A stretch of DNA of 4,837 nt from a virus (lineage: Duplodnaviria; Heunggongvirae; Uroviricota; Caudoviricetes). The stretch is taken from the IMG/VR virus record IMGVR_UViG_2663762648_000008; one strand, written 5' to 3'. Under the pieces are notes generated by a model. That model was given only the letters and a program-made list of their open reading frames with translations, had not been told where the DNA came from and searched no databases. The number at the start of each line of letters is the position of its first letter. Within the stretch, counting starts at the first letter, position 1. A program made the translations under genes and the position numbers. Shown here piece by piece: positions 1,083 to 2,465 of the stretch.

Positions 1083-1293
1083 AAACGGTTTGCGGGAAAA
1101 GGAGAGTTAAGTAGAATTGCAGCGGGTGCTTGAGGCTATCTGTCTCAGGCATGAACACCAAAAGGCAGATAGAGAAAAGCCCCAGTTAACATTACGCGTC
1201 CGGCAAGACGCTTAACATTAATCTGAGGCTCAATCTATGAACGGCAAATCTAGGTTAGCCTCTTACGTGCCGAAAGGCAAGGAGAAGCAGGCT

Positions 1294-1449
1294 ATGAAGC
1301 AGCAAAAGGCGATGTTAATCGCCCTGATCGTCATCTGTTTAACCGTCATAGTGACGGCACTGGTAACGAGGAAAGACCTCTGCGAGGTACGAATTCGAAC
1401 CGGCCAGACGGAGGTCGCTGTCTTCGTAGACTACGAATCCAGGAAGTAA
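1294..1449 (+). CDS. hokD: Hok-family type I toxin (HokD/RelF-like), 51 aa
   Basis: Translation MKQQKAMLIALIVICLTVIVTALVTRKDLCEVRIRTGQTEVAVFVDYESRK matches my recollection of E. coli HokD/RelF over the first ~44 residues, including the TM helix and the conserved Cys; the C-terminus differs (VDYESRK vs TAYEPEE). AAGGAG 1279-1284 lies 9 nt upstream of ATG 1294. The track's longer ORF 1237..1449 is the same frame with a 19-codon in-frame extension. Confidence 0.85.
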   Translation: MKQQKAMLIALIVICLTVIVTALVTRKDLCEVRIRTGQTEVAVFVDYESRK

Positions 1450-1457
1450 GAGTGACC

Positions 1458-1485
1458 GGGCGGGGAGCTGATCCCATCCCCGCCC
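1458..1485 (+). other. Perfect 8-bp stem / 12-nt loop RNA hairpin in the hok 3' UTR, not a terminator
   Basis: GGGCGGGG (1458-1465) pairs with CCCCGCCC (1478-1485) and no U-run follows. The homologous position in copy B (2375-2396) forms a different but still pairing stem (GGCGGGGG / CCCTCGCC with one G-U), so the structure is kept despite sequence change. Confidence 0.45.
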
Positions 1486-1525
1486 ACCTCTGATGTGTCA
1501 GGCATCCTCAACGCACCCGCACTTA

Positions 1526-1580
1526 ACCCGCCCATCGCTGTGATCTCTCAGCGTTTCGGCGGGTTTTTTGTTGTTTATTT
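1526..1580 (+). terminator. Rho-independent terminator downstream of hok (extended hairpin with inner stem-loop)
   Basis: ACCCGCC (1526-1532) pairs with GGCGGGT (1558-1564), followed by TTTTTTGTTGTTTATTT. The 25-nt loop contains an inner 5-bp hairpin (CGCTG...CAGCG). Copy B has the same outer stem with a simple TTCG loop. Confidence 0.55.
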
Positions 1581-2024: not shown

Positions 2025-2360
2025 ATGGCACATATACAACTGGTCAAACAAACCTCTTCCGGATTACTTCTCCCGGCGACGCCGGAGAGTTGCGATTTTC
2101 TGCATCAAATCAAAATAGGTGAGTGGATACACGCAGACTTTAAGCGTGTGTGTAACTACGCATTCCACAAGCGTTTTTTCAAACTCCTGCAACTGGGTTT
2201 CGATTACTGGACTCCGGTCGGTGGGGCGATCACGCCTCGCGAACGAAGTCATCTGTTTAACCGTCATAGTGACGGCACTGGTAACGAGGAAAGACCTCTG
2301 CGAGGTACGAATTCGAACCGGCCAGACGGAGGTCGCTGTCTTCACAGCTTACGAACCTGA
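2025..2360 (+). pseudogene. Truncated/chimeric ORF: ~74 well-formed N-terminal codons (MAHIQLVKQTSSGLLLPATPESCDFLHQIKIGEWIHADFKRVCNYAFHKRFFKLLQLGFDYWTPVGG...) running into the hok remnant out of frame
   Basis: Strong SD (GGAG 2014-2017) 7 nt upstream of ATG 2025. The protein-like sequence continues to ~2248, where repeat copy B begins; beyond that the frame reads hok-homologous DNA in a non-hok frame (low-complexity tail) until the stop at 2358-2360. Confidence 0.4.
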
Positions 2361-2367
2361 GGAGTAA
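2248..2367 (+). pseudogene. Hok toxin 3' remnant (encodes the C-terminal ~39 aa, ...VICLTVIVTALVTRKDLCEVRIRTGQTEVAVFTAYEPEE), lacking start codon and N-terminus
   Basis: Identical over 97 nt to hok copy A, with a C-terminus as I recall for K-12 HokD (TAYEPEE) and stop TAA 2365-2367. The upstream in-frame sequence is unrelated to hok and no hok start or SD is present. Confidence 0.8.
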
Positions 2368-2436
2368 GAGACCTGGCGGGGGAGAAATCCCTCGCCACCT
2401 CTGATGGGGCAGGCATCCTCAATGCACCCACACTTA

Positions 2437-2465
2437 ACCCGCTTCGGCGGGTTTTTGTTTTTATT
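2437..2465 (+). terminator. Rho-independent terminator (copy B)
   Basis: ACCCGC (2437-2442), loop TTCG, GCGGGT (2447-2452), then TTTTGTTTTTATTTT. Confidence 0.6.

Follow-up and report, generated by a model that had tools for sequence, protein, structure and literature searches.

The stretch of viral DNA analyzed here (the window; 4,837 nt of the Caudoviricetes record IMGVR_UViG_2663762648_000008) carries an intact hok toxin gene with its regulatory regions, copy A, followed downstream by a truncated second hok, copy B (Table 1). The Rfam family of the sok antisense RNA (RF01794) matches the 5′ region of copy A at 1124–1299 with 112.4 bits against a gathering score of 59 (E = 7e-26). The hok ORF (1294–1449) encodes a 51-aa protein of the Hok/Gef family, as judged from the ORF list, and this protein is 100% identical to Hok of the E. 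coli ECMA0423 and S. flexneri SFBU1023 loci (L001 and L002); its identity to HokD-type proteins is 90%. The nearest annotations of the copy A region are hokD and hokW/mokW/sokW. The mok start codon at 1237 lies in frame with hok, so that Mok corresponds to Hok with an N-terminal extension (70 aa). We take this in-frame arrangement to resemble that of mokC/hokC in K-12, the mok of R1 presumably being out of frame.

Table 1. Features of the two hok copies in the window (positions are those of the whole stretch).
Feature	Position	Strand	Description	Basis
hok mRNA 5′ regulatory region	1124–1299	+	tac 5′ end (1124–1136), overlapping sok antisense region, mok/hok start region	
mok and hok, copy A	1237–1449	+	mok (ATG 1237, in frame) and hok (ATG 1294, stop TAA 1447–1449); intact toxin gene	
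Hairpin A	1458–1485	+	Predicted 3′-terminal road-block stem-loop of the processed hok mRNA; 1458–1466 with 1477–1485	Folding; covariation; positional homology with R1 stem 342–359; PMC1635323, PMC9841398
fbi (fold-back inhibitory) box, copy A	1506–1518	+	CCTCAACGCACCC, complementary to the 5′ end 1124–1135	
Intrinsic terminator, copy A	1525–1569	+	Stem AACCCGCC (1525–1532) with GGCGGGTT (1558–1565), inner hairpin, T-run	Folding
Copy B	2248–2367	+	3′ two-thirds of a hokD-type hok frame, from ...ICLTVIVTALV to EPEE; stop 2365–2367	
Hairpin B	2374–2397	+	Ordinary hokD-type allele of the road-block stem-loop, in a remnant	Folding
fbi box, copy B	2417–2429	+	CCTCAATGCACCC; orphan, no cognate 5′ end upstream in cis	Alignment
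Intrinsic terminator, copy B	2436–2462	+	AACCCGC TTCG GCGGGTT, then T-run	Terminator scan; folding

Between the stop codon and the fbi box of each copy lies a GC-rich hairpin. In copy A, GGGCGGGG (1458–1465) pairs with CCCCGCCC (1478–1485), exactly the perfect 8-bp stem with a 12-nt loop that the initial annotation had described, and an additional A1466–U1477 pair extends it to 9 bp with a 10-nt loop. Hairpin A has a minimum free energy (MFE) of −19.4 kcal/mol (z = −3.2; 1 of 200 shuffles folds equally well), begins 8 nt past the hok stop codon and ends 20 nt short of the fbi box. In copy B, GGCGGGGG (2375–2382) pairs with CCCTCGCC (2389–2396) around a 6-nt loop; this stem had also been described, though without mention that one of its pairs, G2379·U2392, is a wobble. 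With A2383–U2388 and U2374–A2397 included, the stem of hairpin B reaches 10 bp and is capped by a GAAA loop (−17.3 kcal/mol, z = −4.3; 0 of 200 shuffles as good). The two hairpins occupy homologous positions of a duplicated segment, 6–8 nt past the hok stop codon and about 20 nt 5′ of the fbi box in both copies. The 10-nt loop of copy A (1466–1477) apparently arose via a tandem ATCCC-ATCCC duplication.

Folding of the copy A transcript separates the hairpin from its neighbors. In the predicted MFE structure of 1124–1518, the 5′ end (1124–1135) pairs in silico with 1506–1518 over 12 bp, and the isolated tac–fbi duplex is predicted at −21.5 kcal/mol. The same pairing appears in modeled forms ending at 1518 or at the terminator. 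Hairpin A is an independent local stem in both full-length and truncated folds. When the RNA is cut at 1487, 2 nt past the stem, the 5′ end refolds into a tac hairpin (1124–1136 with 1142–1159), and hairpin A is the last structure remaining once fbi and terminator have been removed.

The initial annotation had proposed that the hairpin is a stability or a fold-back element of the hok mRNA, and the second half of this proposal does not stand. Although the hairpin is located in the 3′ UTR, where a fold-back inhibitory element is to be expected, it is 1506–1518, about 20 nt downstream, and not 1458–1485 that is complementary to the mRNA 5′ end at 1124–1135. In every fold the hairpin pairs only with itself, and in R1 the fbi box (391–398) and the stem (342–359) are likewise separate. 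We therefore regard it as extremely improbable that the hairpin constitutes the fold-back inhibitory element, or a part of it, that pairs with the 5′ end. Nor is there much to recommend the reading of the hairpin as an intrinsic terminator or attenuator for hok. A GC-rich stem directly past a stop codon would fit such a function, but no U-tract follows hairpin A (ACCUCUGAUG), a T-run is missing after either hairpin, and the terminator scan calls neither of them. A canonical terminator is instead present some 40–70 nt downstream in both copies, and the fbi box, which is necessarily transcribed, also lies downstream of the hairpin. The chance that the hairpin terminates transcription appears negligible.

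Across the whole window, dinucleotide shuffles lead one to expect 0.73 ± 0.98 perfect 8-bp hairpins, and one such locus is observed. A single 8-bp hairpin is thus within chance for a 4.8-kb window, and the case for a function must rest on homologues. To this end we used the single Hok protein of the window as query and collected 47 loci from one-per-species genomes (genera Escherichia, Shigella, Kluyvera, Citrobacter, Pantoea, Erwinia, and Photorhabdus), to which 80 viral contigs, the plasmid loci of R1-type hok, pndA, srnB, and IncHI2 hok, and one Vibrio hok were added. A GC-rich hairpin is found 6–9 nt past the stop codon in every intact locus examined.

Covariation analysis across many hok loci, which the initial annotation had put forward as a check, gave a clear signal. 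In a MAFFT alignment of 67 distinct hokC/D/W-type 3′ UTRs, 90.5% of the alignment cells are paired, the unpaired ones belonging mostly to one facultative outer pair, and two-sided changes occur at 5 pairs. The covariation score is 0.237, compared with 0.145 ± 0.008 in shuffles, which ignore phylogeny (0 of 500 reach the observed value), and 0.07–0.14 in slid controls. Over 72 distinct homologous 3′ UTRs, pairing at the eight core pairs reaches about 99%. In copy A and L001, which have a 6-nt loop insertion, the 3′ arm is misaligned by MAFFT; a CM-fitted alignment of 73 matches gives the same statistics and agrees with MAFFT, with 569 of 575 core cells paired (summed per-pair counts). Two pairs are variable in the CM alignment, one occurring as GC, GU, and AU (55, 10, and 7 cases, respectively) and the other as GC, AU, and GU (56, 9, and 7), and Erwinia tracheiphila carries one C–G to U–A change in the stem. 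On the opposite strand, the 23 wobble cells (G·U or U·G) would be A·C mismatches, which points to a constraint on the hok-sense RNA. Since most positions of the stem do not vary in the closest subfamily, pairing there is in part a matter of conservation rather than covariation, and one relative (L011) carries a C·A mismatch in the stem. A GNRA tetraloop closed by an A–U pair is present in 50 of the 67 distinct relatives. The 10-nt loop of copy A is unusual in this respect, and its hairpin allele is common to nine loci (L001, L002, L062–L067, and L142).

These comparisons also bear on whether the hairpin could be a GC-rich palindrome that arose by chance, or a DNA-level site for protein binding or recombination, with no role as RNA. 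The frequency of such hairpins in the window would allow it; however, the element recurs at the same position in all intact hok members examined while its stem sequences differ, its compensatory and wobble changes are specific to the mRNA-sense strand, and genetic results for R1 attest to its importance there (PMC9841398). It would be most surprising if a palindrome without an RNA role accounted for all this. The suggestion of a functional RNA structure is instead borne out: the hairpin is a constrained element of the hok mRNA whose pairing is kept in homologues.

Beyond the prophage subfamily the stem changes completely in sequence, and the CM built on that subfamily did not recover the R1-type stem on the + strand above E = 10. 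Homology across the family as a whole therefore rests on position and architecture. The common layout consists of the stop codon, 6–9 nt, a GC-rich hairpin of 7–13 bp, usually 17–23 nt, and the fbi box, with the terminator beyond it, and was found in 12 of 16 representatives; these 12 include prophage, chromosomal, and plasmid hok loci. The fbi spacing was measured with 13-mer tac/fbi probes, which picked another duplex in srnB, L015, L042, and L093; these four have the hairpin at the same place past the stop codon and were excluded from the spacing count. The layout is present, with different stem sequences, in R1 hok, pndA, Vibrio, Photorhabdus, Erwinia, Pantoea, and Kluyvera. Examples of these subfamily-specific stems are GGCGGGC in R1, GGCGGCAG in pnd, GCGGGGAC in srnB, AGAGGGGGG in IncHI2, and AGGAAAGGCGGU in Vibrio.

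Several loci of the collection depart from this pattern. In the K-12-type hokC loci (L014 and L140), the hairpin is broken within its 3′ arm by foreign sequence (...CCCATAAGCGCTAACTTAAGGGTTG), and neither the normal 3′ arm nor the fbi box is present. This interruption is presumably the known IS186 insertion that lies just downstream of hokC in K-12. With both stem and fbi lost, a stable processed hok mRNA is not to be expected from these loci. Tandem hok copies and remnants occur in Photorhabdus (L028, 1331–1510; L038, 5–133; L039, 376–490), where one partial hok (residues 23–50) keeps the hairpin and diverges right after it, and another second copy has an internal deletion. E. coli-type hok was also detected in near-identical form on contigs assigned to Acinetobacter idrijaensis (L013, 275 bp) and Xanthomonas pisi (L018, 431 bp); these contigs are probably assembly contaminants rather than evidence of real hosts.

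The corresponding stem has been characterized in the hok system of plasmid R1, where processing converts hok mRNAs of 441 nt and 398 nt into a mature form of 361 nt (Faridani et al., 2006; PMC1635323). The R1 stem is the road-block at which 3′ exonucleases stop, yielding the 361-nt active mRNA (PMC1635323; PMC9841398). Truncated hok mRNA (Tr-hok) is absent in the R1 mutants G345A and C358A, and disruption of the stem abolishes toxicity (Le Rhun et al.; PMC9841398). For the R1 terminal stem-loop itself, passages of PMC1635323 and PMC9841398 cite Thisted 1994/1995 and Franch 1997. For comparison we numbered the intact R1-type locus L055 from +1 (GGCGCTTGAGG). On this scale the stop codon is at 330–332, the stem at 342–359, and the fbi box (GAAGCGCC) at 391–398, and G345 and G343 pair with C356 and C358, respectively. 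The stem thus ends at 359 in the L055 numbering, 2 nt from the end of the 361-nt mature form (PMC1635323). Two further R1-type plasmid loci (L048 and L053) have IS150 upstream of hok, so that they cannot be numbered from +1.

The locus in the window and R1 parB hok have much in common. Both have a GC-rich stem of 7–10 bp placed 6–9 nt past the stop codon and about 20 nt before fbi, which folds independently in both forms of the mRNA and includes a common core, GGCGGG...CCCGCC. The order of elements (tac, sok, mok/hok, stem, fbi, terminator) is also the same. The stems differ in sequence, that of R1 being GGCGGGC-GCAG-GCCCGCC, that of copy A GGGCGGGGA with its 10-nt loop, and that of copy B GGCGGGGGA-GAAA with a G·U pair. 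Moreover, the R1 locus is carried on a plasmid, whereas the locus studied here lies in a lambdoid prophage. The nearest sequence relatives are hokW/sokW of the Stx phage 933W / Sp5 and hokD (relF) of the E. coli Qin prophage. Copy A is about 92% identical to the hokW region, copy B shares the HokD C-terminus (...AYEPEE), and the hairpin alleles of the window are the same as in these relatives. Unlike hokW and hokD, the window joins two modules in tandem, the second of which is truncated inside hok. Truncated hokW RNAs have been seen and are uncharacterised (PMC8621323).

Considering its position, fold, and conservation together, hairpin A is very probably the homologue, in position and in function, of the terminal stem-loop of the truncated R1 hok mRNA. 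Stable GC stems stall 3′ exonucleases on bacterial mRNAs. Generic 3′ stem-loops that block PNPase and RNase II share this proposed mechanism with hok (for hok, PMC1635323); unlike in these generic cases, the stall point in hok is a regulatory switch as well, since removal of fbi activates the mRNA. By analogy with R1, the hok mRNA starting near 1124 would be made as an inert full-length form in which tac (1124–1135) is paired with fbi (1506–1518). Exonucleases acting 3′ to 5′ (PNPase and RNase II in R1) would then slowly remove the terminator and fbi and would stall at the base of the GC-rich stem at 1458–1485, so that the mature 3′ end of the copy A mRNA is predicted near 1487. Once fbi is lost, the 5′ end could refold and expose both the mok/hok translation start and the target of Sok, and the hairpin would shield the now active mRNA from further decay from the 3′ side. 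Exonuclease stalling, the mature 3′ end, and stabilization of the active mRNA at copy A are thus expected through homology with R1, and on the same grounds the stability half of the original proposal can be retained. The predicted base-paired structure, its conservation and covariation, its place between the stop codon and fbi, and the in silico tac–fbi pairing come from the present analysis of this locus and its homologues. The element and its role are already known and are not a new discovery, both having been established for R1 hok during the 1990s and borne out by saturation genetics in 2022. For annotation, the layout is of use in predicting the mature 3′ end of a hok mRNA (~1487 here), and it helps to separate intact loci from remnants like copy B and from K-12-type hokC loci with an insertion in the stem.

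The initial annotation had drawn attention to the hairpin because pairing appeared to be preserved, with changed sequence, between copies A and B. Such preservation is seen across many loci, but the A/B pair taken alone is not a case of simple covariation. When the two stems are anchored on a shared C–G pair, the difference between them is not a plain column-by-column exchange: copy B has one extra internal pair (the G·U) and has gained one nucleotide per arm, copy A has one extra G–C pair at the base of the stem, and the closing pair U2374–A2397 of copy B uses an A that is left unpaired in copy A. The ATCCC duplication of copy A accounts for the 6-nt difference between the loops. Both alleles are common in functional hok lineages, the B type in hokD-type loci. 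They arose in two functional hok lineages before these were joined, and not in the toxin-less copy.

The copy B segment starts inside the hok frame about 918 nt downstream of copy A, to which it is ~93% identical. Its hok homology begins at ~2248, near codon 13, with a DUF1367 fragment upstream. Copy B has no start codon, mok, sok, or tac of its own, and a second RF01794 match was not found in the window; to judge from its sequence, it is a remnant and not a complete hok/sok locus. The rearrangement joint lies near 2245–2248, where the first ~74 codons of the DUF1367 gene (ATG 2025) run into hok. In the related prophage L142 the usual order is hok, a 95-aa ORF, DUF1367, DUF1364, and DUF1133. 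A 161-nt probe across the joint had no joint-spanning match in 5,426 E. coli complete genomes, and all of its E. coli matches start on the hok side, at query positions 76–79. This absence suggests a recent, lineage-restricted event. At the protein level, 1983–2367 holds the DUF1367 N-terminus fused out of frame to the 3′ part of the hokD-type hok, and a second ORF (GTG 2119–2367) reads the hok frame and ends ...ICLTVIVTALVTRKDLCEV...AYEPEE.

Retention of the hairpin beside a truncated hok had been read as a further sign of function, and this argument fails. Stem-loops identical to hairpin B occur in six intact loci (L117, L119–L121, L130, and L134), and hairpin B matches the CM with 59.9 bits. 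The retained 223 nt of copy B are 97.8% identical to the intact hokD locus L006 (5 mismatches), and with 5 changes in 223 nt only ~0.4 substitutions are expected in the stem of copy B, so that this divergence gives no power to see selection on its hairpin. The hairpin next to the truncated gene is most simply explained, on sequence grounds, as left over from a recent rearrangement, which would have cut away the 5′ part of a hokD-type locus and spared the 3′ part with the hairpin. In copy B the hairpin would then be without a hok-related role.

We also considered whether hairpin B is under selection for a new role, as a 3′ stabilizer of a chimeric DUF1367′-′hok transcript, as part of a 3′-derived sRNA, or in an fbi decoy acting in trans. 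Copy B has an intact hairpin, fbi, and terminator, its fbi is complementary to the 5′ end of copy A (predicted duplex −21.5 kcal/mol, as strong as that with the cis fbi), and a weak isrK-like Rfam match (25.8 bits) covers 2376–2457. However, the near-identity of the retained segment to intact hokD, the occurrence of the same stem-loop in intact loci, and the lack of the joint in all 5,426 E. coli complete genomes of the collection weigh against this, as do the similar hairpin-keeping hok remnants of Photorhabdus and an isrK match that falls under the gathering score and has an unrelated true context. Selection for a new role is consequently very unlikely, and we favor the leftover of a rearrangement. 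A specific version, in which the copy B 3′ module, as the tail of a chimeric DUF1367′-′hok RNA, acts in trans with fbi 2417–2429 re-closing the processed copy A hok mRNA, and thus serves as a Sok-independent antitoxin RNA protected by hairpin B, seems highly improbable.

As a candidate identity for the copy B 3′ module, the isrK sRNA (RF01394) was rejected, with 25.8 bits against a gathering score of 50. True isrK is found in Gifsy-1 downstream of antQ, overlapping c4-a1b1, and the Salmonella hok remnant L143 has no isrK match. A weak Rfam match to rsmX also covers hairpin B and its terminator (2376–2457). Both matches were judged to reflect a generic resemblance to a hairpin followed by a terminator.

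The ORF at 17–241 (...YNRQRRHSRLGNISPAAFREKYHQMAA) we take to be the 3′ end of an apparent IS3-family transposase gene, and the prophage segment would accordingly abut an IS element. This IS element and the 100% identity of Hok to that of an S. flexneri genome jointly suggest a Shigella-like, IS-rich source. Just past each hok terminator there are promoter-like sites, TTGATT-16-TAGAAT in 1590–1698 and TTGAAG-18-TAGAAT in 2476–2587, each followed by a 94%-identical leader (ACTTAAGTAGCGCGCAGGGAGAAGAGGGATGGACCCCGAACAGGGGAG...) and by the start of a small ORF (MKIEELREIF...). The two small ORFs (1699–1986 and 2585–2869) diverge completely past about codon 30, with a mosaic boundary near 1786 and 2675, respectively.
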